From the NCBI GenBank assembly GCA_017481745.1, contig JAFUOV010000009.1, positions 54,603-118,602 on the forward strand: DNA of 64,000 nucleotides, in the 5' to 3' direction. Shown here one piece after another: positions 19,125 through 42,559 of this stretch (positions are counted from its first letter, which is position 1; each line of letters starts with the position of its first letter). The notes below the pieces were generated by a model that was not told the origin of the DNA, did not search any database, and saw nothing but the letters and a program-made list of their open reading frames with translations. The position numbers and the translations under genes were made by a program. Source of the stretch: Bacteroidaceae bacterium. Its GTDB lineage: Bacteria > Bacteroidota > Bacteroidia > Bacteroidales > Barnesiellaceae_A.

Positions 19125-20291
19125 ATGAAAAAGTTGAGCAAGAAAATCAAACTCTTTATTTCGCATTTTCGCAGCATCTTCTCGTTGTATTCGACACTGC
19201 CTATCAGAAAACGTTTCGCAATTCTATCTGACTACCGCAAGTTATATAAAAACAAAGGACTGAATGTCGATGAGTATTACGAGTATGGCTTTGAAACACA
19301 AAGCAATCATTTCAAGAAAACATTCTTGGGCGTAAACGAGCAACGTTTTTATCTCGACTTTCTCAATCCTATTAAATATTACATCTTATCACGCAATAAA
19401 TATTTTACCCACAAAATATTAGAAAACACAGGTATACGCAAGACAACGTTGTATTGCTACTACCGACCCGAGGGTGTGGTAGAGCACAGCAACGAGGTGG
19501 CAACAAACATCGCCGATGTAGTGCGTATCTTGCAACAACGCAATGTTGCCTCTTGTGTCATCAAAGACACCGAAAACTCGCATGGCGAAGGGGTGGTGGT
19601 TGTTAAACAAATAACCTACTTCGATAACGATTGTTTGCTACATCTCTACAATGGCGAGAGGGCGCATCTGTCGAGTATGCTGGGCAAGCATCCGCTTATA
19701 TTTGAGAGCCTTATAAAGCAAACACAGCAGTTGGAGGCTTTTAATAAATCGTCGGTCAACACCATACGGTTTATGACAACGCTCTATCCCGATGGTGAGG
19801 CTCGTTTGGTGGCAACTTTCATAAAGATTGGTCGCAAAGGCAGTTGTGTTGACAATGCCGGTAGTGGCGGAAATGTAGATGCTTGTATTGACACAGAGAG
19901 TGGTGCATTGAAGTATGTGATTAGATACGACGGCATGCGCGATGTTACCGATATCACTCGCCATCCCGATACCGACGTACAGCTATCGGGTGTCGTGATT
20001 GAGAATTGGGACAAGATAAAGGCTCAAGTACTTCAATATCAAAAGGCTTACCCCTATGCCAAGGCTGCCGGTTGGGACATCGCCATAACCGACGAGGGGG
20101 CTGTGGTGATTGAAGTAAACGATATGTGGGACCGCACAGGACAGCTTTTTATACGCACCGGATGGCGCAACGAAATAAGAGATTGCTACAATGCTTGGCA
20201 ACAGACCGGCGCAAAATATATCCTCTACCGTCAGCAGAACGAATTGACATTAAAGCATCTGTTGAAAATATCGAAACAAGAGTGCGATTGA
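19125..20291 (+). CDS. ATP-grasp protein, sugar-transfer-associated type (ATPgrasp_ST-like)
   Basis: 388 aa. SVNTIRFMT, GSCVDNAGSGGNVDACID and GWDIAITDEGAVVIEVND. It is a paralog of 41483-42559. Confidence 0.7.
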   Translation: MKKLSKKIKLFISHFRSIFSLYSTLPIRKRFAILSDYRKLYKNKGLNVDEYYEYGFETQSNHFKKTFLGVNEQRFYLDFLNPIKYYILSRNKYFTHKILENTGIRKTTLYCYYRPEGVVEHSNEVATNIADVVRILQQRNVASCVIKDTENSHGEGVVVVKQITYFDNDCLLHLYNGERAHLSSMLGKHPLIFESLIKQTQQLEAFNKSSVNTIRFMTTLYPDGEARLVATFIKIGRKGSCVDNAGSGGNVDACIDTESGALKYVIRYDGMRDVTDITRHPDTDVQLSGVVIENWDKIKAQVLQYQKAYPYAKAAGWDIAITDEGAVVIEVNDMWDRTGQLFIRTGWRNEIRDCYNAWQQTGAKYILYRQQNELTLKHLLKISKQECD

Positions 20292-20404
20292 GATGCTAAT
20301 ATATTCTGCACTGCCCGGTGAAATGAGGATTATGCAAGCCCCACAGAGCGAAGGCGTTCATAAATTAATTATGAAAAGTTTGTAATTAATTATTCAGGAC
20401 AATA

Positions 20405-21547
20405 ATGGAGGTTAAAATATTCTTTGCCGGCGACTTTTGTTCAAAGCCTTCGACCCGTAATATCTCGGTTGATGACAGCCTGAAGAATATAATTACGGAT
20501 AGCGATATAAGTGTTGTCAATTTTGAAGTACCTCTCAAGCCTCATTGTTCCAATCTGCCCGAGGTAGAATATGAGCGTTTCTTTCAGAACGATGATACTA
20601 TCGAGTTCTTGCGCAACTTGGGTTTCAATCTCTTTTCTATTGCCAACAATCACATTTTCGATTGGGGCGTAGAGGGCTACAAACACACAGCCGATGCACT
20701 GGGCGATGCTGCCTTTGGTGCAGGACAATATGATGAGGCTTATAGCGTAAAAGTCGTCGAGTGCAATGGCATCCGCATAGGGTTTTTGGCTCTCTGTTAT
20801 GCTGCTCGTCATGGCGTATTTAACGATGTAGCCGACCATAGCGGTTATGGTTGTGCTTATCTGAACGATCTGAAGGTAAACCACATAATACATGCCGAGA
20901 AGAAAAACGTCGATTATCTCTTTGTTTTGCCTCATGCCGGTCTTGAGTATAAAGATGCTCCCATACCCGAGTTGGTGGCACGATACAGAGACTTTATAGA
21001 TTGGGGTTGCGATGGCGTTATTGCTTCACATCCGCATTGTCCGCAAGGGTGGGAGGTATACAACGAGAAACCTATCTTCTACAGCTTGGGTAACCTTTTC
21101 TTCAATAGCAAAGATACGGTCGACTATGTTGCCGACAAGCCGCATTGGTATGAAGGAATGTGCGTGCAGTTGGTTCTATGCGATAAGAAGATAAAATTTG
21201 AAGTAATCAATACGCTGAATATTCGCAACCGACAACTTGTTGTCGACACATCGCTCGAGCGCGACAATCATAACAACTATCTCTGCCGGTTGCTGTATGA
21301 TGCCGACCTCTATAAACAATATCTACAATCGTTGCTGGTCGATGCCGAGGACGAATATCTGCCTCTCTTATATCGTGCCTTCGTGCCCACGACAGGTAAG
21401 AAAATATTGAAGAATGCTATCCGCATGGCTCGCATGGCGCACAAAGGAAGGTTGTTGTCGCTACGCCTTCCGGCTCGTCCCATCATCATCGACGATGCCA
21501 AAAATGCCATGTTGGTGCGGTTGTTCAACACGAAGTATAATAAATAA
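20405..21547 (+). CDS. CapA/PgsA-family (PGA_cap, metallophosphatase-fold) protein
   Basis: 380 aa. FFAGDF, ISVVNFEVPL, FSIANNHIFDWG, VLPHAGLEY, GVIASHPHCPQG and YSLGNLFFN match the poly-gamma-glutamate capsule CapA family pattern. Confidence 0.8.
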   Translation: MEVKIFFAGDFCSKPSTRNISVDDSLKNIITDSDISVVNFEVPLKPHCSNLPEVEYERFFQNDDTIEFLRNLGFNLFSIANNHIFDWGVEGYKHTADALGDAAFGAGQYDEAYSVKVVECNGIRIGFLALCYAARHGVFNDVADHSGYGCAYLNDLKVNHIIHAEKKNVDYLFVLPHAGLEYKDAPIPELVARYRDFIDWGCDGVIASHPHCPQGWEVYNEKPIFYSLGNLFFNSKDTVDYVADKPHWYEGMCVQLVLCDKKIKFEVINTLNIRNRQLVVDTSLERDNHNNYLCRLLYDADLYKQYLQSLLVDAEDEYLPLLYRAFVPTTGKKILKNAIRMARMAHKGRLLSLRLPARPIIIDDAKNAMLVRLFNTKYNK

Positions 21548-21568
21548 CAGCACTGCCTATTATCTGTT

Positions 21569-22459
21569 ATGGCTCGTTTTTTTAAGCAAATAAAGGAGTA
21601 TATCCGTACAAATATTACCCACTTGTCGCCCACACTCAATACTCGCATAAGGTATTGGCGTGCATTTCGCAAGCCTATCGACTTGAAGAACCCTCGCACC
21701 TTGGACGAGAAGATACAATGGCTCAAGCTCAATACCTACTATAAAAACCCTTTGGTAACGCAGTGTGCCGACAAATATGCAGTGCGCGACTATGTTAAGG
21801 ATTGTGGTTGTGGCGAAATACTCAATCCCCTATATTTTGCGTGGGATAGTGTCGACCAGATTAATTGGGACGAGCTACCCAATAGTTTTGTGATAAAATG
21901 GAACTTTGGCTGTGGCTACAATCTGATATGCCGCGACAAGTCGCAACTCGATATAGAGCAAGCCAAGGCTAAACTTTGCGAGTGGCGTAAAGGTCATAAA
22001 ACATATTACCTGACATACTCCGAGATGCAGTATAAGGATATAAAACCCAAACTCATCTGCGAGAAACTTATCGAAACAGCCGATGGAAGCCTGCCACAAG
22101 ACTATAAACTATATTGTTTCAACGGTCGAGCCGAGTATATTCTCGTATGCTCGGGGCGCGACGATGCAGGTCAAGGTGCCAAATACTACTTCTTCGACTC
22201 GCAATGGCAGCTGCAACGCCTCAATCGTGCCGGTAAGGCTGCTCCGCAAGACTTTACATTGCCCAAACCTCAAGGTATTGAACAATTGTTTCACTATGCC
22301 GATGCGCTATCTAAGCCCTTCCCATTTGTTCGTGCCGATTTCTATCTCGAAGAGGGTAGGGTGATATTTGGCGAACTTACCTTTACGCCTTGTGGCGGAT
22401 TGGACAATAATCGTCTGCCCGAAACACAACTGCTCTTTGGCGACAAGGTGAAACTTTAA
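21569..22459 (+). CDS. ATP-grasp fold amidoligase, TupA-like (1 of 4)
   Basis: 296 aa. LKNPRTLDEKIQWLKL, DKYAVRDYV, FVIKWNFGCGYNLIC, DYKLYCFNG and FGELTFTPCGG. Confidence 0.85.
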   Translation: MARFFKQIKEYIRTNITHLSPTLNTRIRYWRAFRKPIDLKNPRTLDEKIQWLKLNTYYKNPLVTQCADKYAVRDYVKDCGCGEILNPLYFAWDSVDQINWDELPNSFVIKWNFGCGYNLICRDKSQLDIEQAKAKLCEWRKGHKTYYLTYSEMQYKDIKPKLICEKLIETADGSLPQDYKLYCFNGRAEYILVCSGRDDAGQGAKYYFFDSQWQLQRLNRAGKAAPQDFTLPKPQGIEQLFHYADALSKPFPFVRADFYLEEGRVIFGELTFTPCGGLDNNRLPETQLLFGDKVKL

Positions 22460-22473: not shown

Positions 22474-23643
22474 ATGTGCAATCCCAATATAGCAATAGTA
22501 GTTGTAGGTTACAATCGGGTCGATTCGATTGCTCGATTGCTCGATACGCTCGATAAGGCATACTATCCGCAAGTCTCAGTACCCCTTATCATCAGCATAG
22601 ACAAGAGCGATACCGATGCCGTAGAGCGCTATGCCGACGGCTTCGATTGGCAGCATGGCAGAAAGCAAGTGGTCAAGCACGAGCAACGAATGGGGTTGCG
22701 CAACCATATACTCAGTCTGGGACAGCACTTCGACCATTACGATGCCCTCATTGTGCTCGAAGACGACCTCTCGGTGTCGCCCAACTTCTATCTCTATGCC
22801 ATGCAGGCAGTAGAGAAATATCACGACGACGACCGCATAGCCGGCATCAGCCTCTTCAGCTTTGCCATAAACTACCAGACGGGGCACTTCTTCCAACCCA
22901 TCAAAGACCACAACGACGTCTACTTCATGAACTGCGCCCAATCGTGGGGACAAGTGTGGATGAAACGTCAATGGCTCCGTTTCTACGAGTGGTACAACGA
23001 CCATACCCACTTCCCCCAACAGTCGCCCCTGTTGCCACCATATATATGCACATGGCCTGCGACGTCGTGGCTCAAGTATCACACACGCTATTGTGCCGAG
23101 GAAAATCTCTATTTCGTGTATCCCTATGTAGCATATACCACCAACAATGGCGATACAGGCACACACAACGGCGGCTCATATATCAACCTCAACCAAGAGC
23201 GATTGCAACGAGGTCGCATCACAACCCTGCGATTGCCCCATTTCGACGAAGAAGAAACAGTGTGCTACGATGTCTTTTTCGAGAACAAAAAGCTCGCTCA
23301 AGTGTTAAACCTCGACGACGACCAATGTTGCGTAGACCTCAATGGCGAGCGAGGCAACAGAGAAAACAAGCGATATTGGCTCACAACCAAGCAGTGCAAC
23401 TACAAGATTTGCCGGCAGTTTGGTGTGCGCTATCGCCCCATAGACGAGAACATTTATGCTGCAACACCCGGATGCGAAATATATCTCTACGACACAACAC
23501 AAGTCGTCGAGAATACATTCAAACGCACATTCTCGCACCTGCTATACGACATACGCATCGACACCATATCGCGCGTAATACGCACCTATGGCAAGAAAAG
23601 AGCCATTCGCGAAGCCATCAAACGCCTTTTCCGCCGAAAATAA
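22474..23643 (+). CDS. Glycosyltransferase, GT-A fold (GT2-like)
   Basis: 389 aa. N-terminal IAIVVVGYNRVDSIARLLDTL...ISIDKSD...LEDDLSVSP (DxD-like). Confidence 0.7.
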   Translation: MCNPNIAIVVVGYNRVDSIARLLDTLDKAYYPQVSVPLIISIDKSDTDAVERYADGFDWQHGRKQVVKHEQRMGLRNHILSLGQHFDHYDALIVLEDDLSVSPNFYLYAMQAVEKYHDDDRIAGISLFSFAINYQTGHFFQPIKDHNDVYFMNCAQSWGQVWMKRQWLRFYEWYNDHTHFPQQSPLLPPYICTWPATSWLKYHTRYCAEENLYFVYPYVAYTTNNGDTGTHNGGSYINLNQERLQRGRITTLRLPHFDEEETVCYDVFFENKKLAQVLNLDDDQCCVDLNGERGNRENKRYWLTTKQCNYKICRQFGVRYRPIDENIYAATPGCEIYLYDTTQVVENTFKRTFSHLLYDIRIDTISRVIRTYGKKRAIREAIKRLFRRK

Positions 23644-23654: not shown

Positions 23655-24323
23655 ATGCCTTCAATCATCAAATACATACGTCGCAAAGTTGAACTCGCAC
23701 GGCTCAAAAAACGCCATGTCATCATACACAAGCACGCCGATTTCAACCGCAACACACAATGCGAAGGCTATAACATCGTACACCCCGGCTCGTCGGTAAA
23801 AGACACCACACTCGGCTATGCCACATACATAGGGCTCGATAGCAAGCTCGAAAGATGCCGTATAGGACGATTTTGCTCCATCGGCGGCAACGTATCGGTA
23901 ATAGACTCGCGCCACCCCACCGACACATTCGTGTCGACACACCCCATATTCTTCAGCCCAAACAAACAATGCGGCAGAACATTCACCGACCAATTGCTGT
24001 ACCCCGAAATACTCAGCGTAGACGGCTATGCAGCCATTATAGGTAACGACGTGTGGATAGGCAACGACGTGAGAATAATGGGCGGATGCACCATTGGCGA
24101 TGGCGCCATAGTAGCAGCAGGAGCAGTAGTAACCCGCGATGTACCACCATACGCCATCGTAGCAGGCGTACCCGCCAAGGTAATACGCTACCGTTTCAGC
24201 CCCGAGCAAATAGAAACACTCCTCAACACACAATGGTGGAATTGGTCAGTCGACAAGATACAGCAACACCACAGCCAATTCCTCAACATCGACCAGTTCA
24301 TAGCCGGCAACCCAGCCACATAA
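23655..24323 (+). CDS. Hexapeptide-repeat O-acetyltransferase (CatB/Vat-like)
   Basis: 222 aa. Left-handed beta-helix repeats ([53 protein letters not shown]). Confidence 0.85.
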
Positions 24324-24326: not shown

Positions 24327-25181
24327 ATGAAAGAAAAAATATACAACATAGTCATCAAAATATTAGTAACCCTGTTTGGACGTCGATTTGTTTACGCCAT
24401 ACGATACTACAGGCTGCGCAAGCGTTGGCCCAATTTCGACCAACCGCAAGACCTCAGCGAGTATCTCATAAACAAAATAACAACCAACCAGACCCACACA
24501 TACGCACCCCTCGCCGACAAAATAGAAGTACGACAATACGTCGCCTCAAAAGGACTATCGTCGATACTACTGCCACACTACGGCTATTGGAGCAATGCAC
24601 ACGACATCAACTTCGATACACTCCCACCGAAGTTCGTACTCAAAACCAACAACGGCGTAGACTCGCAAAACGTATACATCTGTCGCGACAAATCCACATT
24701 CGACATCCCGTCAGTCTGCAAGAAACTCAACAAAGCACTCAAGGAAAAGTCAGTCTACGAGTACCACTACAACCTTATCGAACCCAAAATACTCTGCGAA
24801 CAACTCCTGGAGACCCAACAAGGAACACAACCCACCGACTACAAGTTCCTCTGCATCAACGGAAAAGTAGTAGACATAATAGCCACGATGGACCGTTTTG
24901 AGCACAAGCGATCAATAATAATGACCCCCGATTGGCAATACGTCGACCGTATGTATCACCAATACATCCCCGATACATTACCACCACGACCCAACCAATT
25001 ACAACAAATGATAAACATAGCACAAACCCTCTCGGCAGACTTTGACGTAGTACGAGTCGACCTATACAACCCCGGCGAAAAAATATACTTCGGCGAACTC
25101 ACATTCACCCCCTCAGCCGGACTCCTCGACGCCCGCACAACCCAAGCCATAACCCACTACGCCACCCTGCTAAGGGGATAA
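24327..25181 (+). CDS. ATP-grasp fold amidoligase, TupA-like (2 of 4)
   Basis: 284 aa. DKIEVRQYV, FVLKTNNGVDSQNVYICRDK, DYKFLCINGK and YFGELTFTPSAG. Confidence 0.85.
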   Translation: MKEKIYNIVIKILVTLFGRRFVYAIRYYRLRKRWPNFDQPQDLSEYLINKITTNQTHTYAPLADKIEVRQYVASKGLSSILLPHYGYWSNAHDINFDTLPPKFVLKTNNGVDSQNVYICRDKSTFDIPSVCKKLNKALKEKSVYEYHYNLIEPKILCEQLLETQQGTQPTDYKFLCINGKVVDIIATMDRFEHKRSIIMTPDWQYVDRMYHQYIPDTLPPRPNQLQQMINIAQTLSADFDVVRVDLYNPGEKIYFGELTFTPSAGLLDARTTQAITHYATLLRG

Positions 25182-25207: not shown

Positions 25208-26146
25208 ATGAAAAACAGAATCGCAATTATAGCAGTATATTTTGGTCCGTTACCTAATTATTTACCCCTATGGTTAAAATCTTGTGAGTATAATGATTTG
25301 ATCGATTTTTATTTAATAACAGACCAAAATGTAGCACAACATCCATCTAATGTCATAGTAAAACCTATGACATTAGGAGAGATGAAAAATCGTGCTCAAT
25401 CAATCTTACAATTTGATGTTAGTTTGGAAAGACCTTATAAATGTTGTGATTTTAAAGTAATATATGGATTGATTTTTCAAGATTATGTAAAGGATTATGA
25501 TTATTGGGGACATTGTGATCTTGATTTAATATGGGGAGATTTGTCATATTTTTTCCAAAAGTACAATTTGTATAATTATGACAAATTCCTCGTTCTAGGG
25601 CATCTATCTTTATATAGAAATACAGATGATGTTAATAATGCCTTTAGAAAAGACGGTTGTTCAAAAGATTTTCATACAATTTTTTCTAATGATAAATCTT
25701 ATGGTTTCGATGAGAAAAATGGAATTTATAGAATAATGCTTCATAATAATTATAAGGTCTTTGATAGAGATATTTATATAGACATTACTACATTGTATAA
25801 GCGTTATAGATGTAATGCAGAATGTTATAATTATCAAACATATTATTGGAAAGAAGGAAAAATATATTATATATATTATGATGAAAAAGTTTTGAATACC
25901 AAAGAATATATGTATATCCATTTCCAAAAAAGACCTAATTATGAACTGACGTTTGATTGTAAAGATGTAAAAGAATTTTATATTACAAATAGTGGCTTTT
26001 ACATCAAAGATAAAGAACCCTCTATACCCGAAATAAATAAGTTAAACCCTTATAGAGGAAAGTTGTATGAAATGATAGAAAAGACCTATAATGTATATAA
26101 GAAGCGTATAATGTTAAAATTAAAATCGTGGAAAATACTACACTAA
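25208..26146 (+). CDS. Conserved polysaccharide-locus protein, putative glycosyltransferase (DUF6625-like)
   Basis: 312 aa. IAIIAVYFGPLPNYLPLWLKSCEYNDLIDFYLITDQ and YWGHCDLDLIWGDL resemble a family recurrent in Bacteroidales CPS loci. The function is unproven. Confidence 0.5.
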   Translation: MKNRIAIIAVYFGPLPNYLPLWLKSCEYNDLIDFYLITDQNVAQHPSNVIVKPMTLGEMKNRAQSILQFDVSLERPYKCCDFKVIYGLIFQDYVKDYDYWGHCDLDLIWGDLSYFFQKYNLYNYDKFLVLGHLSLYRNTDDVNNAFRKDGCSKDFHTIFSNDKSYGFDEKNGIYRIMLHNNYKVFDRDIYIDITTLYKRYRCNAECYNYQTYYWKEGKIYYIYYDEKVLNTKEYMYIHFQKRPNYELTFDCKDVKEFYITNSGFYIKDKEPSIPEINKLNPYRGKLYEMIEKTYNVYKKRIMLKLKSWKILH

Positions 26147-27606
26147 AGTCTTTGACGGCTCAAGCAACAAAATGGTCTTCTGTGACAGAGATTGCAAGCC
26201 GTCTAGTTTTACCATTTATTAATATGGTGTTAGCAAGATTGTTAACACCAGAAGCTTTTGGTGTAATAGCAACAGTCAACATGATTGTTAGTTTTGCAGA
26301 GATATTTACAGATGCTGGCTTTCAAAAATATCTTGTGCAACATGATTTTGAAGATGAAGAAGAACTTGACAATAATACGAATGTAGCATTTTGGACAAAT
26401 CTCTTAATATCCGTTGTTTTATGGCTATTGATATTTTTTTTCTCAGAGCAACTTGCTATATTAGTAGGGAATCCGGGTTTAGGAAATGTTATAGTTATTG
26501 CATCTTTAGTTTTGCCGGTTAATGCTTTCAGTAGTATTCAGATGGCTCGCTATAAAAGAGATTGGAATTTTAAGTCATTGTTTTATGTGCGTTTAGTGTC
26601 TATATGTGTTCCTTTATTTGTAACATTGCCATTAGCATATATAACAAAAAGTTTCTGGGCGTTAGTTATTGGAACATTATCAGGAGCTGTTGTAAATGCT
26701 GTCATTTTAACTTGCAGGTCTCGATGGAAACCTAAGTTGTTTTTTTCAATAAAGAAATTGAAAGAAATGTTTTCATACAGTTGGTGGATAATGATGGAGT
26801 CTATATCAACGTGGATGACCTCCTATTTCGATACTTTTATTGTTGGTATATTTTTATCTACTTTTTATGTCGGTATATATAAGACATCAATGATAACAGT
26901 AAACCAAATTATATCTTTAATAACATCGGCAACATCGATGCCATTATTTGTGGCACTTTCACGCTTAAAAAATGATAGGGATGCGTTAATAGATATGTAT
27001 AATAATTATATGCAAGCAGTTGCATTCTTCGTTTTCCCATTAAGTATTGGAATTTGGATTTATAGAGATTTTATAACATTTATTCTTCTTGGTTCACAAT
27101 GGAAAGAAGCTGCTGATTTTATTGGCTTATGGGGTTTATTGTCATCTATTAGCATTGTTCTAGGAACTTATGCAAATGGTTTGTATAATGCTATTGGAAA
27201 AACTTATATCTCATTCTTAGTAGCATTAATAAATATTTTATATATGATACCTATTTTATTTTGGTCCGCGCCGTTAGGTTTTGAGACCTTGTATATATCA
27301 CGTTCCAGTGTGAGGATTTTGTTTGTTATTATACAATTATTAATGATGAGTATTTATATAAAATATCCTATCTTTAGTTTAATAAAAAAACTTTTACCAA
27401 TAATTCCTTCCACAGTATTAATGGCAATTGTTGCGCTATTGTTAAATATGATTAGTCAAGCTTATTTGTGGAATTTTGTATGTATATTTATATGTATATT
27501 TGTATATTTTACATCAATGTTTATAATAAATAAAAAATTACTTAATAATTCATTACAGACACTAGGTGTAAATATTAAGATGTTAAAAAAGAGTAATCAT
27601 AGCTAA
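26128..27606 (+). CDS. wzx: Wzx-type oligosaccharide flippase (MOP superfamily)
   Basis: 492 aa with about 12-14 TM segments and an N-terminal ...LARLLTPEAFGVIA motif. The GTG start overlaps the upstream gene by 19 nt. Confidence 0.85.
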   Translation: MENTTLKSLTAQATKWSSVTEIASRLVLPFINMVLARLLTPEAFGVIATVNMIVSFAEIFTDAGFQKYLVQHDFEDEEELDNNTNVAFWTNLLISVVLWLLIFFFSEQLAILVGNPGLGNVIVIASLVLPVNAFSSIQMARYKRDWNFKSLFYVRLVSICVPLFVTLPLAYITKSFWALVIGTLSGAVVNAVILTCRSRWKPKLFFSIKKLKEMFSYSWWIMMESISTWMTSYFDTFIVGIFLSTFYVGIYKTSMITVNQIISLITSATSMPLFVALSRLKNDRDALIDMYNNYMQAVAFFVFPLSIGIWIYRDFITFILLGSQWKEAADFIGLWGLLSSISIVLGTYANGLYNAIGKTYISFLVALINILYMIPILFWSAPLGFETLYISRSSVRILFVIIQLLMMSIYIKYPIFSLIKKLLPIIPSTVLMAIVALLLNMISQAYLWNFVCIFICIFVYFTSMFIINKKLLNNSLQTLGVNIKMLKKSNHS

Positions 27607-32093: not shown

Positions 32094-32094
32094 T

Positions 32095-34755: not shown

Positions 34756-35958
34756 ATGTATATACTAATTACCGGTGCCAAAGGCTTTGTTGGGCGCAAT
34801 CTTGTGGCACAACTCAACAATATCAAGGACGGCAAGGCAAAGTTCTATGGCGATGTTGTGGTCGATGAAGTGTTCGAGTACGACATCGACTCTACTCCCG
34901 ACGAGCTCGACCGCTATTGCCGCGAAGCCGACTTTGTGTTCAACCTTGCAGGGGTCAATCGCCCTCAAAATCCCGACGAGTTTATGCAAGGCAATTTCGG
35001 CTTTGCATCCACACTGCTCGACACCTTGCGCAAGCACAACAATACCTGCCCCGTAATGCTCAGCTCGTCTATCCAAGCCACCCTCGCCGGACGTTTCGGT
35101 ACGAGCGAATATGGCAAGAGCAAGAAGGCAGGCGAGGAGTTGTTCTTCGACTATGCTGCCACCACCGGTGCGCGAGTGTTGGTATATCGTTTTCCCAATC
35201 TCTTTGGCAAATGGTGCCGTCCCAACTACAACTCGGCAGTGGCTACCTTCTGCAATAACATTGCCAACGACTTGCCCATTACCGTCAACGACCGTTCAAC
35301 CGAGCTCGAGTTGCTCTACATCGACGACCTCGTTGACGAAATGATAGCCGCCATACGGGGCGACGAGCATCATTGCGAGTTTGAGGGTGTCGATACCATC
35401 CTTACCCCCCAAGGTCGTTACTGTGCAGTACCCGTAACGCACAAAATCACTTTAGGCGAGATTGTCGACCTGCTTGACGAGTTCCACGCCCAGCCGCAAT
35501 CGCTCACCATCCCCGACATTCCCGAAGGCTCGTTTGCCAAGAAACTCTACTCGACATACCTTTCGTATCTGCCCAAGGAGAAAGTGGCTTTCCCCTTGAA
35601 GATGAACATCGACGCTCGCGGCAGCTTCACCGAGCTATTGCGCACACGCAATAACGGGCAAGTAAGCATCAACATATCCAAGCCCGGCATCACCAAGGGA
35701 CAACATTGGCACAACACCAAGTGGGAGTTCTTCATGGTCGTAGCAGGTCGCGCACTCATTCAGCAACGCCGCATCGACAGCGACGAAGTGCTCAACTTTG
35801 AGGTCAGTGGCGACAACATTCAAGCCGTACACATGTTACCCGGCTATACGCACAACATTATCAACCTCTCCGACACCGACGACCTCGTTACCGTAATGTG
35901 GTGCAACGAATGTTTCGACCCCAATCGCCCCGATACATACTTCCTGCCGGTAGAGTAA
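34756..35958 (+). CDS. fnlB: FnlB/CapF bifunctional reductase/epimerase (SDR domain plus C-terminal cupin)
   Basis: 400 aa. ITGAKGFVGRNL, HLAGVNRP-like LAGVNRPQ, LSSSIQAT, PNLFGKWCRPNYNSAVATFC, GSFTELL, ISKPGITKGQHWHNTK and MWCNECFDPNRPDTYF. Confidence 0.9.
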   Translation: MYILITGAKGFVGRNLVAQLNNIKDGKAKFYGDVVVDEVFEYDIDSTPDELDRYCREADFVFNLAGVNRPQNPDEFMQGNFGFASTLLDTLRKHNNTCPVMLSSSIQATLAGRFGTSEYGKSKKAGEELFFDYAATTGARVLVYRFPNLFGKWCRPNYNSAVATFCNNIANDLPITVNDRSTELELLYIDDLVDEMIAAIRGDEHHCEFEGVDTILTPQGRYCAVPVTHKITLGEIVDLLDEFHAQPQSLTIPDIPEGSFAKKLYSTYLSYLPKEKVAFPLKMNIDARGSFTELLRTRNNGQVSINISKPGITKGQHWHNTKWEFFMVVAGRALIQQRRIDSDEVLNFEVSGDNIQAVHMLPGYTHNIINLSDTDDLVTVMWCNECFDPNRPDTYFLPVE

Positions 35959-36069: not shown

Positions 36070-37254
36070 ATGAACATTAAACTCGACTATTCGACTGTAA
36101 GTTTCAAGAACGACGGTCGCCTCAAACTGCTCATCATCGTAGGAACTCGCCCCGAGATTATACGCCTCGCAGCAGTCATTAACAAATGTCGCAAATACTT
36201 CGACACCATATTGGCACACACAGGTCAGAACTACGACTACAACCTCAACGGCGTATTTTTCAGAGATCTCAAACTCGCCGACCCCGAGGTATACATGGAT
36301 GCCGTAGGCGACGACCTTGGCGCAACCATGGGCAACATCATCAACGCATCGTACAAACTGATGGTGCAAGTCAAGCCCGATGCCGTACTCGTACTTGGCG
36401 ACACCAACAGCTGCCTGTCGGTAATCGGCGCCAAACGCCTACACATACCCATCTTCCACATGGAAGCCGGTAACCGCTGCTTCGACGAATGTCTGCCCGA
36501 AGAGACCAACCGTCGCATCGTCGACATCATCTCCGACGTCAACCTCTGCTACTCCGAGCACGCACGTCGTTACCTCAACGCATCGGGCGTAGCCAAAGAA
36601 CGCACCTACGTAACCGGTTCGCCCATGGCAGAAGTCTTGCACGAAAACCTCGCCGACATCGAGGCAAGCGACATACACGCACGACTCGGTCTCGAAAAAG
36701 GTCGATACATACTCCTCTCGGCACACCGCGAAGAAAATATCGACACCGAGCGCAACTTCACAAGCCTCTTCACAGCCATCAACCGCATGGCAGAGAAGTA
36801 CGATATGCCCATACTCTATTCGTGCCACCCACGCAGTCGCAACCGATTGGCAGCAAGTGGGTTTAAACTCGATCCACGCGTCATCCAACACGAGCCTCTC
36901 GGCTTCCACGACTACAACTGCTTGCAGATGAATGCCTTTGCAGTAGTAAGCGATAGCGGAACACTCCCCGAAGAAAGCTCATTCTTCACATCCGTAGGAC
37001 ACTCATTCCCCGCAGTGTGCATACGCACCAGCACCGAGCGCCCCGAGGCCCTCGACAAAGGCTGCTTCATCCTCGCCGGCATCGACGAGCACTCACTGCT
37101 CCAAGCCGTCGACACAGCCGTAGAGATGGTACGCAACTACGACAACGGTATACCCGTACCCAACTACACCGACGAAAACGTATCAACCAAAGTCGTAAAA
37201 CTCATACAATCCTACACCGGCGTTGTCAACAAAATGGTGTGGAGAAAATTCTAA
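36070..37254 (+). CDS. fnlC: UDP-N-acetylglucosamine/UDP-L-TalNAc 2-epimerase, non-hydrolysing (FnlC/CapG)
   Basis: 394 aa. LKLLIIVGTRPEIIRLA, HTGQNYDYNL, GDTNS, HMEAGNRCFD and PEE.NRRIVD. Confidence 0.9.
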   Translation: MNIKLDYSTVSFKNDGRLKLLIIVGTRPEIIRLAAVINKCRKYFDTILAHTGQNYDYNLNGVFFRDLKLADPEVYMDAVGDDLGATMGNIINASYKLMVQVKPDAVLVLGDTNSCLSVIGAKRLHIPIFHMEAGNRCFDECLPEETNRRIVDIISDVNLCYSEHARRYLNASGVAKERTYVTGSPMAEVLHENLADIEASDIHARLGLEKGRYILLSAHREENIDTERNFTSLFTAINRMAEKYDMPILYSCHPRSRNRLAASGFKLDPRVIQHEPLGFHDYNCLQMNAFAVVSDSGTLPEESSFFTSVGHSFPAVCIRTSTERPEALDKGCFILAGIDEHSLLQAVDTAVEMVRNYDNGIPVPNYTDENVSTKVVKLIQSYTGVVNKMVWRKF

Positions 37255-37265: not shown

Positions 37266-38477
37266 ATGAATAACAAACTTCGTAACGTTCCATTCTCGCC
37301 GCCCGATATGAGTGAATGCGAGATTGCTGAAGTAAGTGAAGCACTACGCTCTGGATGGATTACCACCGGACCACGTACCAAAGAGTTTGAGAAACAAATC
37401 TCTGATTATTGTCACACCGATAAAGCGGTGTGCCTAAACTCGGCAACAGCTTGTATGGAGCTTATATTGCGAGTTCTTGGTGTTGGTCCCGGCGATGAAG
37501 TCATAACATCGGCATATACATATACAGCAACAGCAAGTGTTACTTGTCACGTTGGTGCCAAAGTAGTGATGGTCGATACTGCTCCTAACTCCTTTGAAAT
37601 GGATTATGACAAACTTGCCGATGCTATAACCGAACGTACGAAAGTTATTCTGCCGGTCGATTTAGGTGGAGTAGTGTGCGATTACGATAAGATATATGCT
37701 GCAGTAGAGAGTCGTAAACATCTGTTCCGTCCGTCAAACGATATACAACGCGCATACGGTAGGGTAGTAGTGTTGGCCGATGCAGCACACGCCTTCGGAG
37801 CGCAATGGCACGGCAAGATGTGTGGAGAAATAGCCGATTTTACCTCATTCTCGTTCCACGCAGTGAAGAATCTTACTACTGCCGAAGGTGGTGCGCTTAC
37901 TTGGCGTACTCACGAAGGGGTTGATAATGAATGGTTGTATAAGCAGTTCCAACTCTTTTCGTTGCACGGACAAAATAAGGATGCACTTGCCAAAACAAAA
38001 TTGGGTGCGTGGGAGTATGATATTGTTGCCCCCAACTACAAGTGCAATATGACCGATATTATGGCCGCCATAGGCTTGGCTCAATTCAAGCGTTATCCCG
38101 ATATGCTCCGTCGTCGCCACGATATTATTCGCAAATATAATGATGCGTTGAAAGGTCATAATGTGCAGACATTGACACATGTTGGCGACAACCACACATC
38201 GAGTGGACACCTCTACTTGGTACGTTTGTTGGATTGTGATGTGGAAGAACGAAATCGCATCATTGAGCAAATGGCAGAGCGTGGCATTGCCTGCAATGTA
38301 CACTATAAGCCACTGCCTATGATGACGGCATATAAAGCATTAGGTTTCGACATAGCCAACTATCCCAATGCATATAACCAATATCGCAATGAAGTAACCC
38401 TGCCGTTACACACTCGCCTCACCGATGAGGATGTTGAGTATGTCATCAGCAATTTTGTAGAAGTAATAAGTCAATAA
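37266..38477 (+). CDS. DegT/DnrJ/EryC1-family PLP-dependent sugar 4-aminotransferase (PglE/WcfR-like)
   Basis: 403 aa from ATG 37266. FSPPDMSECEIAEVSEALRSGWITTGPRTKEFE, and SFHAVKNLTTAEGG carries the PLP lysine. The longer track ORF from 37017 is an out-of-context extension overlapping fnlC. Confidence 0.9.
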   Translation: MNNKLRNVPFSPPDMSECEIAEVSEALRSGWITTGPRTKEFEKQISDYCHTDKAVCLNSATACMELILRVLGVGPGDEVITSAYTYTATASVTCHVGAKVVMVDTAPNSFEMDYDKLADAITERTKVILPVDLGGVVCDYDKIYAAVESRKHLFRPSNDIQRAYGRVVVLADAAHAFGAQWHGKMCGEIADFTSFSFHAVKNLTTAEGGALTWRTHEGVDNEWLYKQFQLFSLHGQNKDALAKTKLGAWEYDIVAPNYKCNMTDIMAAIGLAQFKRYPDMLRRRHDIIRKYNDALKGHNVQTLTHVGDNHTSSGHLYLVRLLDCDVEERNRIIEQMAERGIACNVHYKPLPMMTAYKALGFDIANYPNAYNQYRNEVTLPLHTRLTDEDVEYVISNFVEVISQ

Positions 38478-38492: not shown

Positions 38493-39689
38493 ATGAAAAC
38501 AAAAAAAATATTGATGCTGGGTGGTGGTTTCCTGCAATGTTTTGTTATTAAAAAAGCAAAACAATTGGGCTACGAAGTTCACGTTCTCGATGCTAATCCA
38601 CAAGCCGAAGGTTTCAAGTATGCCGATGCTTATGCCGTTATCAATATTGTTGATGAAGAGGCTTGCTTGGCGTACGCTCGTAGTGAGAATGTTGATGGTG
38701 TGCTTACTGCTGCTACCGACTATAGCGTGCTTGCTATGAGTCGTATCGCTTCTGAGTTGCATCTGCCGGGTATCAATTACTCATCGGCAAAACTCATAAA
38801 AAACAAAGCCGAAGTGCGCAGATGTCTTTTCGATGCTCAAGCAGATGATACAGGATATTCTTATGAAATATCCTCATCGCAAGAGGCTCTATCAGTTCTA
38901 CCGGAAGTAAAATTCCCCGTAATGGTCAAGCCTTGTGACGGATCGGGTAGTAGAGGTGCATCGCGTGTCGATAATCCCGATGAGTTTGTTACTGCGTGTG
39001 AGTATGCTATGCAAGGATCTATAACACATCGTGCAGTAGCCGAGCCTTTTGTGGTTGGTCGAGAGTATGGTGTTGAATCTTTTGTAAACCAAGGCGAAAT
39101 ACATATCTTGGCAGTAATGCAAAAAGATATGACTATGCCACCCTACTATGCCGAACTGGGGCACGCTATTCCTTCGGGCTTATCGGTCGAAATGGAGGCA
39201 AAAGTAAAAGAGTGTGTACGTCGTGCCTTGATAGCACTTGGGGTCAATCACGGCTCGGTCAATATGGACTTGCTTATTGATAGCGACGGTGGTGTACACA
39301 TAGTTGATATAGGTGCGCGTATGGGTGGTAATCTCATAGGTTCGCATATAATACCTTTGGGAACAGGTATAGATTATATGGCCAATATGATAAAGGCTGC
39401 AATGAGTGATGAGGTCGATTTTACTCCTCAAACAGAGTCGGCACCCGTAGCCACCAAACTATTGGCCTTGACTCCGGGAGTTGTAGCATCCTTACCCAAT
39501 TTCGATAATATTGCTACGACCTACAAAGTGACAATAGAACACCACTTGCACCAAGGCGATACAATTACCCCATATCGTACCAACCTCGATGGTTGTGGAT
39601 ATGTGGTTGCTACAGGTCGTGATGTTTATGAGGCGATTGATACAGCAAGAATGGTTCGTGAAATTATTGACTGCACTATTATACGATAA
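38493..39689 (+). CDS. ATP-grasp carboxylate-amine ligase (classical pre-ATP-grasp plus ATP-grasp architecture)
   Basis: 398 aa. KKILMLGGGFLQ...KQLGYEVHVLD, FPVMVKPCDGSGSRGASRV and HIVDIGARMGGN. Confidence 0.8.
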   Translation: MKTKKILMLGGGFLQCFVIKKAKQLGYEVHVLDANPQAEGFKYADAYAVINIVDEEACLAYARSENVDGVLTAATDYSVLAMSRIASELHLPGINYSSAKLIKNKAEVRRCLFDAQADDTGYSYEISSSQEALSVLPEVKFPVMVKPCDGSGSRGASRVDNPDEFVTACEYAMQGSITHRAVAEPFVVGREYGVESFVNQGEIHILAVMQKDMTMPPYYAELGHAIPSGLSVEMEAKVKECVRRALIALGVNHGSVNMDLLIDSDGGVHIVDIGARMGGNLIGSHIIPLGTGIDYMANMIKAAMSDEVDFTPQTESAPVATKLLALTPGVVASLPNFDNIATTYKVTIEHHLHQGDTITPYRTNLDGCGYVVATGRDVYEAIDTARMVREIIDCTIIR

Positions 39690-39691: not shown

Positions 39692-40882
39692 ATGAAGAAA
39701 ATTTTGATTATCGGTGCCGGTGATTATCAAGTACCGGCTATTAAGCGGGTGCGACAAATGGGCTATGCTGCATACTGTGTCGATTATAAAGAGGGACAGC
39801 CGGGCTTTGAATATGCCGATGGATACAAAATTATAGATGTAAAAGACAAAGAGGCCTGCTTGGCGTTTGCTCAAGAACTATCCATTGATGGTGTACTTAC
39901 TTGGGGGGCAACTCTTACGTTACCTACGGTAAGTTACATTGGTGAGAGAATGAATCTCCCTTGTATGCCTATGGCAACATCGGAAATCTCTATGAGTAAG
40001 TATCAAATAAGAAAGGCATTAGATGATTTTGGCCTAAATAGTGCAGGACGCACATTTGAGTTAAATAGTCAAGAAGAGGCTAAAAATCGAGAATACTCAT
40101 TGCCGTTTGTGGTTAAGCCTACCGATGGATCGGGAAGCAAAGGCGTATGTATAGTAAAAGAATCGAGCGAAATAGAAAATGCTATACAATATGCATTTGA
40201 AGGCGCACGCAATAATCAGATATATGTTGAGCCGTATATCGATGGTGAAGAATTTACGGTAGAAGCCTATGTTTGCAATGGTAAATGTTACATATACTCT
40301 ATTGTGAAAACAGAGTTCTATTGGACAGAAAACTATCCTATATACAAGCAAACAACATATTTGGGTATAACTCCCGAAGTAGAGCAGGCAATAACTCTTG
40401 AAGTTGAAAAAGCCGTAAAGGCATTAAATGTTACTTGGGGACCTATAAACTTCGATTTGATAGTATCTGCCGACAATAACAAGCCGTATATTATCGATAT
40501 TGGTATCCGTAATGGACAAAATCTTATTGCATCGCACATAGTACCCTATTCGCGTGGTGTTGATGAGTTAGACAATAGTATCAATCTCTGCTTGGGCATC
40601 GAAACCGATGCTATTCCTAAAAAGAAGAAATACATATCTTCTCGACTGCTTATTTATAATCCCGGAGTAATAAAGCAGATAAAGGATGTTAATCAAGTAA
40701 TTGGTACAAATAACATCGTTGACGTAATTATGCGTAAGAAAGAGGGAGATATACTCCCACCATATCAAACAAAGTCGGATATATGTGGCTGGGTGCTTAC
40801 TGAAGGTGATACTCCCGATGCTGCAAGCCAATATGCCGATGCTGCTTGGGAAACTCTGCAAAACTATATTATCATTGAATAA
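39692..40882 (+). CDS. ATP-grasp carboxylate-amine ligase; tandem paralog of 38493-39689
   Basis: 396 aa. KKILIIGAGDYQ...RQMGYAAYCVD, LPFVVKPTDGSGSKGVCIV and YIIDIGIRNGQN. Confidence 0.8.
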   Translation: MKKILIIGAGDYQVPAIKRVRQMGYAAYCVDYKEGQPGFEYADGYKIIDVKDKEACLAFAQELSIDGVLTWGATLTLPTVSYIGERMNLPCMPMATSEISMSKYQIRKALDDFGLNSAGRTFELNSQEEAKNREYSLPFVVKPTDGSGSKGVCIVKESSEIENAIQYAFEGARNNQIYVEPYIDGEEFTVEAYVCNGKCYIYSIVKTEFYWTENYPIYKQTTYLGITPEVEQAITLEVEKAVKALNVTWGPINFDLIVSADNNKPYIIDIGIRNGQNLIASHIVPYSRGVDELDNSINLCLGIETDAIPKKKKYISSRLLIYNPGVIKQIKDVNQVIGTNNIVDVIMRKKEGDILPPYQTKSDICGWVLTEGDTPDAASQYADAAWETLQNYIIIE

Positions 40883-40893
40883 ATAGCAATATT

Positions 40894-41481
40894 ATGTATC
40901 AAAATTTTATCAAACCCATCTGTGATTGGATAATTGCTTTAATTGCATTTCCCTTCTTTTGTATCATTTGGATATGTGTTGCAATAGCCATTAAATTGGA
41001 AGATGGTGGTCCTGTATTTTATATGGCCGAGCGTATAGGAAAAAACAGTAAGAAACTGATGATGTTTAAGTTTCGCTCTATGAAAGTGAATGCCGAAAAC
41101 ATAACAAACCCCGATGGCAGTTCGTTTAATGCAAAAGATGATCCTCGTGTGACCAAGGTGGGTAAATTCTTGCGCGAAACAAGCCTCGATGAAACAGCCC
41201 AAGTATTGAATATGCTTAAAGGCGAAATGAGCCTTGTCGGCCCTCGTGCAAGTGGATGGTCGGCATTGGAAAATTATCAACCCGATGAAGTTGATAAGAT
41301 GAAAGTTCGCCCCGGTATTACAGGTTATACTCAAGCATATTATCGCAACAGTATAGGTGTACGAGATAAACGTCTTAAAGATGCTTGGTATGCCAATAAC
41401 ATATCATTTATGCTCGATGTTAAAATTTTCTTTAAAACAATACAAACAGTATTGAAACACAATAATATTTATACGAATTAA
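40894..41481 (+). CDS. Small (PglC/WcfS-like) undecaprenyl-phosphate sugar-phosphate transferase; initiating enzyme
   Basis: 195 aa. One re-entrant N-terminal helix, then GGPVFY...R.G.....F...KFRSM, DPRVTKVG.FLR..SLDE..Q..N.LKGEMSLVGPR. Confidence 0.9.
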   Translation: MYQNFIKPICDWIIALIAFPFFCIIWICVAIAIKLEDGGPVFYMAERIGKNSKKLMMFKFRSMKVNAENITNPDGSSFNAKDDPRVTKVGKFLRETSLDETAQVLNMLKGEMSLVGPRASGWSALENYQPDEVDKMKVRPGITGYTQAYYRNSIGVRDKRLKDAWYANNISFMLDVKIFFKTIQTVLKHNNIYTN

Positions 41482-41482
41482 T

Positions 41483-42559
41483 ATGGCTACAAGTAAAAAA
41501 TTACGCGCAATATATGATGGTTTCTTTGAAGGATTGGAAACTTCTTGTGCAAATCTAATATCAAATATAACTGAATATTCAAGGTTAAAAAAATATTGCA
41601 AAACAAAACCGACAAAGGAATATAAGAAGAAGGTTGGCGATTTTTGGAAGAAATATAAGTCAATTTCGCCTTTATGGGGGTGGTATTATGCTTCTCAAAA
41701 TGGAATAGAAGATCCTCGTTATATTCCTAATACAATGTACTATGCAAAAATAGATCAGCATTTCAACAATAGAAAACTCGGTTGTGGATTTAATGATAAG
41801 AATTATTATTCTCGTATTTTCTATGGTATTAATCAGCCCAAAACGTTGGTGAGAAATGTTAATGGAATCTTGTTAGATGAGAATTATAAACTAATAACAA
41901 CTCAACAGGCTCTTGATATAGTTTTACAAGAAAAAGAGGTGGTTTGCAAGCCCTCTTTAGAAACAGGATCAGGAAGGAATGTTTGTTTTTGGAAAACTAA
42001 TTCGCAAGAAGAAATAATAAAATCTTTTATTAAAGGTGAGGAGAAAAATTATATTATTCAAGGTGTAATAGAGCAGCATCCTAAATTAAAGGAGATACAT
42101 AAAGATTCAATTAATACATTGCGTATTGTATCTTTATTGATGAAAGATGGTGTGTATATTTTATCTTCTAATCTGCGTATGGGTACTGGTAGTAGTCGTG
42201 TTGATAATGTAACAGGTGGAGGTATCAGTTGTGGCGTAAATTCAGATGGCTCTTTAAAAGATTATGCAACAGATTATTATACGGGAGAGAAATTCTATCA
42301 ACATCCCCAAGGCACTATTTTTAAAAATTTAACTGTGCCATCATATAACAAAGCGATAGAACTTGTTATTCAAGCCCACTCTATTATACCCCATTTCCGT
42401 TTGGTTTCTTGGGATATTGCTATTGATATTGACGGAGAACCTTTGTTGATAGAAGCTAATATGCGTAAAGGTGGCATAAATTTAAATCAGTTTAATAATG
42501 GCCCTCTTTTTGGAGATATGACCGAATGTGTTTTGGACGAGGTTTTTGGTAAAAAATAG
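41483..42559 (+). CDS. ATP-grasp protein, sugar-transfer-associated type (ATPgrasp_ST-like)
   Basis: 358 aa. VVCKPSLETGSGRNV, SINTLRIVS, SSRVDNVTGGGISCGVNSDG and SWDIAIDIDGEPLLIEANMRKGG. It starts 2 nt after the initiating transferase. Confidence 0.7.
   Translation: MATSKKLRAIYDGFFEGLETSCANLISNITEYSRLKKYCKTKPTKEYKKKVGDFWKKYKSISPLWGWYYASQNGIEDPRYIPNTMYYAKIDQHFNNRKLGCGFNDKNYYSRIFYGINQPKTLVRNVNGILLDENYKLITTQQALDIVLQEKEVVCKPSLETGSGRNVCFWKTNSQEEIIKSFIKGEEKNYIIQGVIEQHPKLKEIHKDSINTLRIVSLLMKDGVYILSSNLRMGTGSSRVDNVTGGGISCGVNSDGSLKDYATDYYTGEKFYQHPQGTIFKNLTVPSYNKAIELVIQAHSIIPHFRLVSWDIAIDIDGEPLLIEANMRKGGINLNQFNNGPLFGDMTECVLDEVFGKK

Follow-up and report, generated by a model that had tools for sequence, protein, structure and literature searches.

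ATP-grasp enzymes form amides in two stages: a carboxylate is turned into an acyl-phosphate, which is then transferred to an amine. Two of their families, the TupA-like and the sugar-transfer-associated (ST) ATP-grasps, were reportedly predicted from comparative genomics in 2009 (by Iyer, Abhiman, Burroughs, and Aravind) to be amidoligases of surface glycans. The occurrence of ATP-grasp amidoligases in surface-glycan loci is therefore an established idea, and it has been proven for one enzyme: Cj1438C, the TupA-like domain of Campylobacter jejuni, is an amidoligase that acts on the C6 carboxylate of a chain-incorporated terminal glucuronic acid (GlcA), with serinol-phosphate or ethanolamine-phosphate as the amine, and a phosphatase trims the product afterwards (PMC11800397, PMC11800379). 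Deletion of a TupA-type amidoligase in the capsule locus of Vibrio alginolyticus gives resistance to HH109, a phage with a capsule receptor (PMC11382117). Known glycans carry GlcA or galacturonic acid (GalA) amidated with Ala, Lys, Ser, Thr, allo-Thr, Gly, Glu, or Orn, as well as N-epsilon-(1-carboxyethyl)-lysine on GalA, alanopine on Qui4N (4-amino-4,6-dideoxyglucose), and aminoacylated 4-amino sugars (PMC10609480, PMC7685785). Here, we describe a locus with eight ATP-grasp genes of three families in a 64,000-nucleotide stretch, the window, of contig JAFUOV010000009.1 (positions 54,603 to 118,602; GenBank assembly GCA_017481745.1) from a Bacteroidaceae bacterium, an uncultured gut member of the Bacteroidales. 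We consider it likely that the locus is one 31-gene Wzx/Wzy capsule operon whose eight ATP-grasp enzymes amidate the glycan with amino acids or amines derived from them.

The 31 genes run consecutively on the + strand at 11869-44200 with gaps of at most 198 bp, and the operon (11869-44262, ~32 kb) has an UpxY-like gene at its head and, at its end, the sole strong + strand terminator found from 11 to 46 kb. We read the run as one operon because of the short gaps and the lone strong terminator; the co-orientation and tight packing remarked on in an earlier note on this DNA hold along its whole length. Eight ATP-grasp genes among 31 co-oriented genes are not a chance arrangement. Since there is a single UpxY, a single Wzx, a single Wzy-like gene, a single initiating transferase, and a single strong terminator, we treat the run as one locus, and the same counts rule out a fusion of two capsule loci. 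Several features by which an UpxY-led capsule locus is recognized are present: its first gene is NusG-like, its glycosyltransferases are co-oriented, and it has Wzx and an initiating transferase. No gene for an UpxZ partner stands in the 30-bp gap between UpxY and Ugd, and the search for an invertible promoter upstream of UpxY gave just weak, imperfect, AT-rich inverted repeats.

All eight ATP-grasp open reading frames (ORFs) that the earlier note had placed on the + strand and sorted into three families were confirmed in place by Pfam: four TupA-like genes (TupA1 to TupA4; PF14305), two ST genes (ST1 and ST2; PF14397), and two genes that resemble L-amino acid ligases (LAL1 and LAL2; ATP-grasp_4 plus LAL_C2). 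TupA1 to TupA4 score 138 to 270 bits against a PF14305 cut-off of 25 bits, and LAL1 and LAL2 score 58 to 63 bits with ATP-grasp_4 and 34 to 49 bits with LAL_C2, all above cut-offs; the LAL match to the L-amino acid ligase 3vot in the PDB has an E value of 4e-27. No specific NCBIfam model was found for any of the eight. The earlier note had proposed that ATP-binding residues and structures be checked. In family alignments with homologs from other genomes (107 TupA, 47 ST, and 8 LAL), where a position was called conserved if at least 85% of the family shared it, all eight window proteins keep the conserved positions except TupA2, which lacks the N-terminal EK..K motif, has alanine for one C-terminal glycine, and retains every conserved position of the ATP-grasp core. 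The FV.K lysine, the glutamate, DYK, R.D, and FGE are among the conserved TupA positions and are invariant in TupA1 to TupA4; TupA2 spans profile positions 9-224 of 241. We take E269, the glutamate of the TupA1 FGE motif, to be, unaligned, the counterpart of E269 in CfmP, a TupA-like protein of Klebsiella, whose mutation abolishes function (PMC13419641). ST1 keeps 12 of 12 conserved ST positions, ST2 likewise retains those of its family, and both LAL proteins keep theirs. All eight ligases are full length, and with their conserved residues intact we rejected the idea that any is a pseudogene. Two of the motifs in the earlier note need amending: NP.T..EK.QWLKL, given there for all four TupA-like proteins, is found in TupA1, TupA3 (with KP), and TupA4, and TupA2 instead reads QPQDLSEYLINKIT; the ST motifs (S.NT.R, VDN..GGG, and WDIAI...E.N) stand as listed except that ST1 has VDNAGSGG instead of VDN..GGG.

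An AlphaFold2 model of TupA1 (predicted local distance difference test [pLDDT], 81.6; predicted template modeling score, 0.82) gave 303 Foldseek matches in the PDB at an E value of ≤1e-3, led by LysX, PsnB, Ddl, and VanA with a probability of 1.0; the model thus supports an ATP-grasp ligase fold for TupA1. Sequence searches of the PDB found no relatives of the TupA or ST families. Identity between paralogs is low, at 32 to 36% for TupA pairs (57% for TupA3/TupA4), 25% for ST1/ST2, and 33% for LAL1/LAL2, so that we regard the eight as distinct enzymes and not as recent copies.

To place the number eight in context, one genome per GTDB species was scanned with the TupA alignment, and at least 586 stretches with relatives were found in Bacteroidota, Clostridia, Bacilli, Pantoea, and other groups. 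ATP-grasp genes were counted in the best 80 of these loci with iterated hidden Markov models built from the window proteins; the main count covers the 62 TupA-centered loci longer than 15 kb in a frame of ±10 kb, and each count is a minimum, since the models pass over generic ATP-grasps and the frames are of limited length. One ATP-grasp gene was found in 26 loci, two in 16, three in 13, four in 2, and five in 5, which puts two or more in 58% of the loci and five in 8%. The 23 Bacteroidota loci have one gene in 8 cases, two in 7, three in 7, and five in 1; the five-gene class includes a Muribaculaceae locus (L050) with four TupA genes and one ST gene. The window has five ATP-grasps within ±10 kb of TupA1, seven in its best 21-kb frame, and eight in the whole locus. 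In a metagenome sample centered on LAL genes, loci have one to three ATP-grasps versus four or five here in the same frame. As for the question in the earlier note of whether eight is an outlier, it is the highest count seen, but gut Bacteroidales and Clostridia often have two to five such genes within 21 kb. Eight ligases are the top of a continuous range and not a separate category, with this locus in the upper tail. The idea having been predicted in 2009 and proven once, and multiligase loci being common, we see in this locus an extreme example and not a new principle. The earlier note had also said that it would be undone if equally ATP-grasp-rich loci proved common and already characterized: they are common, and none was found characterized. 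In three Clostridia metagenome-assembled genomes (MAGs; L027, L028, and L030), which also belong to the five-gene class, a TupA gene is surrounded by four ST genes in two tandem pairs, all within 11 kb (~3.2-14 kb in each); ST-rich loci exist beyond Bacteroidota and could be used as a comparison system.

Parts of the locus recur elsewhere as cassettes. TupA is accompanied by ST in 26 of the 80 loci, by the epimerase and by the initiating phosphoglycosyl transferase (PGT) in 20 each, by Ugd in 16, by the dehydrogenase of the alanine dehydrogenase (AlaDH)/PNT family in 13, and by the PGA_cap gene in 9. The dehydrogenase adjoins TupA in 12 of the 13 TupA-centered loci that have it and lies beside TupA or ST in three further contexts (among L095-L098); TupA3/4-like genes are its usual neighbors elsewhere. 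A simple Bacteroidales locus (L096), in the order UpxY, WbpM-like, Ugd, epimerase, GHMP kinase, nucleotidyltransferase, Wzx, dehydrogenase, TupA, Wzy, glycosyltransferases, and FnlABC, amounts to the left half of the window locus with one ligase. TupA1 orthologs have ST genes ahead of them, in the order ST1-like, PGA_cap, ST2-like, TupA1-like in L010 and L029 and in a shorter form in L009, and ST1 orthologs (50 to 61% identity) lie in ST-PGA_cap-ST-TupA cassettes in L010, L029, and L015-L017. LAL1 orthologs (~70% identity) belong to a 3' cassette, LAL1-(LAL2)-PGT-GT4-DegT-(DUF6016), on more than 20 human-gut contigs; LAL2 orthologs (66 to 67% identity) adjoin them in L121, L126, and L127, and distant LAL homologs stand beside PseB/FnlA-like dehydratase and DegT genes. 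The TupA-dehydrogenase, ST-PGA_cap-TupA, and LAL-PGT-aminotransferase cassettes are widespread but unstudied.

Gene GC content ranges from 0.26 to 0.53 along the operon, from which we take the locus to be a recombinational mosaic, built from parts with different histories. A block at 25208-33207 (DUF6625, Wzx, TupA3, TupA4, Wzy, and two GT4 genes) has a gene GC of 0.26 to 0.33 (0.17 to 0.25 at third codon positions), with DUF6625 and Wzx at 0.26 to 0.30, TupA3 at 0.28, and TupA4 at 0.31, and is flanked by segments of 0.45 to 0.53. ST2 is at 0.32, the 23S-IVP-family gene is at 0.36, LAL2, PGT, and the last GT4 gene are at 0.37 to 0.39, and the remaining genes are at 0.44 to 0.53. The high ligase count probably arose through the joining of cassettes from different donors. 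So sharp a mosaic might also mean that some ligases are redundant, silent, or without substrate and that the real number of amides is well below eight, which would agree with the neighboring positions of TupA3 and TupA4, the most similar pair, and with the broken genes of related loci, where ST is frameshifted in L013, only a remnant of TupA is left in L096, and the GT2 gene is split on the variant contig L003. Yet all eight genes are full length with their catalytic positions kept, six of the ligases are too divergent (25 to 36%) for redundant copies, and the locus is unchanged on ~20 contigs from many sequencing runs, so that we hold such redundancy to be unlikely.

Amide-linked decoration of the capsule sugars is the reading that fits the genes best and is partly supported by them; the sugars probably bear many amino acid substituents. 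A repeat unit of probably six or seven sugars would be built on undecaprenyl phosphate at the cytoplasmic membrane face, and the eight enzymes would use ATP to form acyl-phosphates and then the amide bonds that join amino acids or derived amines to the glycan. TupA1 to TupA4 would amidate, on the lipid-linked glycan and in the manner of Cj1438C, the C6 carboxylates of the GlcA and GalA predicted to come from Ugd and the 4-epimerase. ST2 begins one base past the stop of PGT (41481/41483), a Bac_transf transferase, and may act on the lipid-linked first sugar there; ST1 does not adjoin a sugar transferase of that type. The DegT and PGT gene context suggests a sugar amine as the acceptor of LAL1 and LAL2, which might aminoacylate the 4-amino group of an initiating 4-amino-6-deoxy sugar made by a dehydratase and DegT; alternatively, the pair might assemble a dipeptide there.

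The dehydrogenase would make or finish an N-(1-carboxyethyl) amino acid, i.e., an opine like that in the GalA-carboxyethyl-lysine amides of Providencia and Proteus, together with a neighboring ligase. It reaches 106 bits with the alaDH equivalog model, whose cut-off is 392, and for that reason we do not consider it a true alanine dehydrogenase. More than 1,600 close homologs exist, many at 70 to 80% identity, and JGI names some of them (73% identity) N5-(carboxyethyl)ornithine synthase; a literature search on that family returned alanine dehydrogenase papers alone. Directly upstream of a homolog in L095 (70% identity; 1,513 sequences in its 90% cluster) lies a gene for a 747-residue protein (L095:1961-4204) in which ATPgrasp_ST covers residues 519-718 only and the N-terminal ~500 residues have no Pfam match.

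The PGA_cap protein is predicted to work as a cassette with ST1 and TupA1. Its only relatives in the PDB are the 8gq9/8gqa/8itg group, deposited as poly-gamma-glutamate synthesis protein, which we take, from NCBIfam NF038314, to be the epimerase MslH; the likeness extends over ~115 aligned residues at a low score, and the aligned NNH..D and PH positions are kept. The gene that the earlier note called CapA is present, and in Pfam scans of all 31 genes neither a CapB-type nor a CapC-type family had a match, so that no poly-gamma-glutamate synthesis is implied and that meaning of CapA was rejected. The protein may instead epimerize an amino acid with a free carboxyl, as MslH would, or dephosphorylate a phosphorylated amine, as Cj1435 does in C. 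jejuni. The second role belongs to a different reading, in which the ligated groups are small phosphorylated amines (ethanolamine-phosphate or serinol-phosphate) as in C. jejuni HS:2 and PGA_cap is the phosphatase. Its attraction is that the sole biochemically characterized TupA-like domain uses these amines and then needs a phosphatase (PMC11800397) and that PGA_cap has a metallophosphoesterase fold with its metal and His motifs kept. However, no Cj1436-type decarboxylase, Cj1437-type dihydroxyacetone phosphate transaminase, or HAD phosphatase is among the Pfam matches of the 31 genes, the opine-synthase-like neighbor suggests amino acid substrates, and amino acid uronamides are far commoner in known glycans (PMC10609480); we find phosphorylated amines quite improbable.

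Several points weigh against amide decoration of the glycan as set out here. Sequence alone assigns no substrate to any of the eight ligases, and the capsule chemistry of this organism is read from its genes. One uronic acid pathway serves four TupA enzymes, so that several uronates per repeat, or carboxylates other than uronates, have to be assumed. The carboxyethyl-ornithine synthase label comes from the name that one database, JGI, gives to homologs, and the PGA_cap residues aligned with MslH are general metallophosphoesterase motifs. A structure model of ST2 from a two-sequence alignment was unusable (pLDDT, 33.6), and no characterized ST-family member was found in the literature searched. 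One TupA-like enzyme, CfmP of Klebsiella, is tied to protein rather than to glycan (PMC13419641). That some TupA-like enzymes here modify protein, as proposed for CfmP and FimA, would follow this example, in which the effect is independent of surface polysaccharides (PMC13419641); but the chemistry proposed for CfmP is itself tentative, all eight genes lie in a capsule operon without a candidate protein substrate, and TupA genes keep company with Ugd, epimerase, PGT, and Wzx across the 80 loci, which makes protein modification highly improbable.

A further alternative concerns the arrangement of the amides and not their nature. If the ligases act serially at one site, they would build an oligopeptide or opine-peptide side chain independently of nonribosomal peptide synthetases (NRPSs), like the stem peptide made by Mur ligases. 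Eight ligases set against one uronic acid pathway and one aminotransferase, the tandem pairs TupA3/TupA4 and LAL1/LAL2, and the conservation of ST-PGA_cap-(ST)-TupA cassettes as units all speak for such a chain; the LAL family (LAL_C2; 3vot) is one of dipeptide ligases, and MslH-type enzymes act on the C-terminal residue of a peptide (PMC10406935). Against this, six or seven glycosyltransferases leave room for several singly substituted uronates and amino sugars, the chemically known examples that we found carry single amino acids or one opine, and a mosaic origin favors independent add-on modules over a coevolved assembly line. On balance, we consider a serial peptide rather unlikely. Its fullest form, an NRPS- and ribosome-independent line on the lipid-linked repeat that combines successive TupA, ST, and LAL ligations, in that order, with reductive carboxyethylation by the AlaDH/PNT-family enzyme and in situ L-to-D epimerization of the terminal residue by a calcineurin-fold enzyme of the CapA/MslH type, seems improbable to us. 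If true, its product would be a true glycopeptide capsule in gut Bacteroidales, and the cassettes would be portable peptide-decoration modules common to Bacteroidota and Clostridia.

The remaining genes supply sugars and assemble the polymer (Table 1), and most of the neighbors named in the earlier note are real: Ugd, the SDR epimerase, the AlaDh_PNT enzyme, PGA_cap, Wzx, Bac_transf, four GT4 genes, FnlA, FnlB, FnlC, and DegT, with Wzy_C a weak match. The Wzy-like protein is 33 to 43% identical to the ORFs of L096-L098 that occupy the positions of called Wzy_C genes. There are six to seven glycosyltransferases in all, including the four of GT4. The GHMP kinase falls below the cut-off of the NCBIfam galactokinase models; with the nucleotidyltransferase, it may form a salvage route to a nucleotide sugar, either a UDP-uronic acid or a related sugar. 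The same pair stands with Ugd and an epimerase in L096 (Bacteroidales; 6065-7975) at 81 to 87% identity and in L043 (Oscillospiraceae) at 45 to 47%. The SDR epimerase has 352 residues with the start codon as called on metagenome contigs, and its PDB relatives 6zl6 and MoeE5 are UDP-GlcA 4-epimerases. On one contig of this same locus (L003:10906-12075), the GT2-like gene is split into ORFs of 183 and 175 residues and TupA2 has 282 residues; either the assembly is at fault or the glycosyltransferase is broken in this strain variant. A bAvd-like 23S-IVP-family gene splits an otherwise standard N-acetyl-L-fucosamine (L-FucNAc) cassette between FnlA and FnlB (GC, 0.36 versus 0.50 to 0.53). Relatives of the DUF6016 protein (34 to 41% identity) end the human-gut LAL-PGT-GT4-DegT cassettes in L106, L107, L126, and L127; a possible function for it, linked to the amino-sugar pathway, is that of a sugar isomerase or epimerase.

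Table 1. Features of the window and the matches on which their names are based (E, E value)
Feature	Coordinates	Strand	Evidence
SprA gene, 3' part; ORF-poor	1-5344	-	2,464-aa gene crossing window edge
RuvA, near SprA	5381-5965	-	
Pterin-binding protein, near SprA	7010-7870	+	
CdaA-like diadenylate cyclase, near SprA	7896-8651	+	
UpxY-like NusG-family antiterminator, operon gene 1	11869-12486	+	PF02357 NusG, E 1.5e-8
UDP-glucose 6-dehydrogenase (Ugd), makes UDP-GlcA	12517-13833	+	three UDPG_MGDP_dh Pfam domains; TIGR03026 301 bits, above cut-off
Galactokinase-like GHMP sugar-1-kinase	13849-15003	+	Pfam; nearest PDB entries are galactokinases
Sugar-1-phosphate nucleotidyltransferase	15008-15745	+	Pfam
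Short-chain dehydrogenase/reductase (SDR) epimerase, UDP-glucuronate 4-epimerase-like, predicted UDP-GalA maker	15772-16830	+	PDB 5u4q, E 3e-110, then 6zl6, MoeE5
GT4 glycosyltransferase (GT4a)	16854-18101	+	PF00534, E 5e-31
AlaDH/PNT-family dehydrogenase, N5-(carboxyethyl)ornithine-synthase-like (predicted opine-forming)	18105-19091	+	AlaDh_PNT_N and _C, above cut-off
ST1	19125-20291	+	PF14397, E 1.4e-38, 133 bits (cut-off 31.4)
PGA_cap (CapA/PgsA-like, calcineurin-fold), candidate epimerase/phosphoesterase	20405-21547	+	PF09587, E 2e-43
TupA1	21569-22459	+	PF14305, E 3e-44
GT2/GNT-I-like glycosyltransferase	22474-23643	+	Pfam
Hexapeptide-repeat acetyltransferase	23655-24323	+	Pfam, NCBIfam
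TupA2, divergent N-terminus	24327-25181	+	PF14305, E 4e-40
DUF6625 protein	25208-26146	+	PF20330, E 3e-84
Wzx flippase	26182-27606	+	Polysacc_synt_3, E 1e-81
TupA3	27805-28779	+	PF14305, E 4e-75
TupA4	28901-29815	+	PF14305, E 3e-80
Wzy-like polymerase	29830-31014	+	Wzy_C 23.5 bits, under 31.7 cut-off (weak)
GT4 glycosyltransferases (two)	31011-32093, 32095-33207	+	PF00534
FnlA (L-FucNAc module)	33209-34255	+	NCBIfam FnlA 499 bits, below equivalog cut-off
23S-rRNA-IVP-family gene, 121 aa	34323-34688	+	PF05635, E 6.5e-34
FnlB/WbcJ	34756-35958	+	WbcJ 347 bits, below equivalog cut-off
FnlC	36070-37254	+	wecB 223 bits, above cut-off
DegT/PseC-like sugar 4-aminotransferase	37266-38477	+	PF01041, E 4e-94; PseC model 306 bits, below cut-off
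LAL1, L-amino-acid-ligase-like	38493-39689	+	ATP-grasp_4 + LAL_C2; nearest PDB 4dim, 3vot
LAL2	39692-40882	+	ATP-grasp_4 + LAL_C2, E 8e-13
Small monotopic PGT, initiating transferase	40894-41481	+	Bac_transf PF02397, E 1.5e-56
ST2	41483-42559	+	PF14397, E 7e-42, 144 bits (cut-off 31.4)
GT4 glycosyltransferase	42563-43807	+	Pfam
DUF6016 cupin-like protein, last operon gene	43814-44200	+	Pfam
Intrinsic-terminator-like hairpin, operon end	44229-44262	+	13-bp stem, 6 GC pairs, then TTTTATTTAT
tRNA-Met (CAT), single, downstream of locus	48929-49001		

The genes that flank the operon are of Bacteroidota type: type IX secretion protein SprA, receptors of the TonB/Plug type, and an extracytoplasmic function sigma factor. 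An Rfam scan gave no rRNA for the first 5 kb, where ORFs are sparse, and no family at gathering score across the window other than the tRNA-Met. The ligases are present with identical sequence and gene order on ~20 contigs from two metagenome run series, SRR125293xx and SRR292674xx, whose source samples we take, from their names, to be ruminant gut. With one genome per GTDB species, the nearest TupA1 relatives (55 to 65% identity) are in Bacteroidales MAGs, the majority of which were sampled from rumen, horse, and deer. When the flanking TonB receptor was looked up by exact sequence to find other capsule alleles at this site, the same locus alone was returned.

In gut Bacteroidales, the diversity of capsules controls susceptibility to phages, recognition by the immune system, and competition between strains. 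To our knowledge, few of these capsule structures have been solved, and we found none with amide-linked amino acids reported in the literature searched. The locus and its recurring cassettes lead us to predict that gut and rumen anaerobes have a large and so far hidden class of capsules decorated with amino acids, opines, or peptides. Its eight divergent enzymes are material for working out the substrate rules of three poorly characterized ATP-grasp families, and the roles of the dehydrogenase and the CapA-like protein in glycan decoration would, if true, be new biochemistry. The locus is an entry point to unexplored capsule chemistry, if less singular than the earlier note held. That note knew of no characterized system of this kind in Bacteroidota, and the literature searched gave us none either.

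Among described systems, Cj1438 of C. jejuni HS:2/HS:19 is alike in belonging to the PF14305 family of TupA1 to TupA4 and in standing in a capsule locus that also makes UDP-GlcA. That system has a single ligase domain fused to GT2, a capsule exported by an ABC transporter (Kps), and the Cj1435 phosphatase, whereas the window has four stand-alone TupA genes and four other ATP-grasps in a Wzx/Wzy locus with an opine-synthase-like gene. WemR, a predicted amidoligase cited as TupA-like (PMC13419641), is likened to our locus by description. The uronate amides of enterobacterial O-antigens (Proteus mirabilis O27/O28, Providencia rustigianii O14, and Escherichia coli O91/O110) match the predicted chemistry (PMC10609480, PMC11989651), with N-epsilon-(1-carboxyethyl)-lysine on GalA in P. 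rustigianii O14 (PMC10609480); they differ in coming from another phylum, in having one or two substituents per repeat, and in that their ligases are mostly uncharacterized.

Six of the eight window genes are clear members of the two families of the 2009 prediction (PF14305 and PF14397), and ST2 has the adjacency to Bac_transf that defines the ST family, whereas ST1 lies away from a sugar transferase in an ST-PGA_cap-TupA cassette. LAL1 and LAL2 share ATP-grasp_4 and LAL_C2 with the L-amino acid ligases BacD/YwfE, BL00235 (3vot), and RizA; those enzymes make free dipeptides in secondary metabolism, whereas the window pair is fixed in a capsule cassette with an aminotransferase and PGT. The protein at 20405-21547 is of the PGA_cap family, like those of CapBCA/PgsBCA and MslH, with the aligned catalytic positions kept, but the missing CapB-type and CapC-type matches set the locus apart from a poly-gamma-glutamate system. 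Three things set this locus apart from the known kind: a single operon holds so many ligases of such diversity, these are combined with an opine-synthase-like dehydrogenase and a CapA/MslH-like protein, and the phylum is Bacteroidota.

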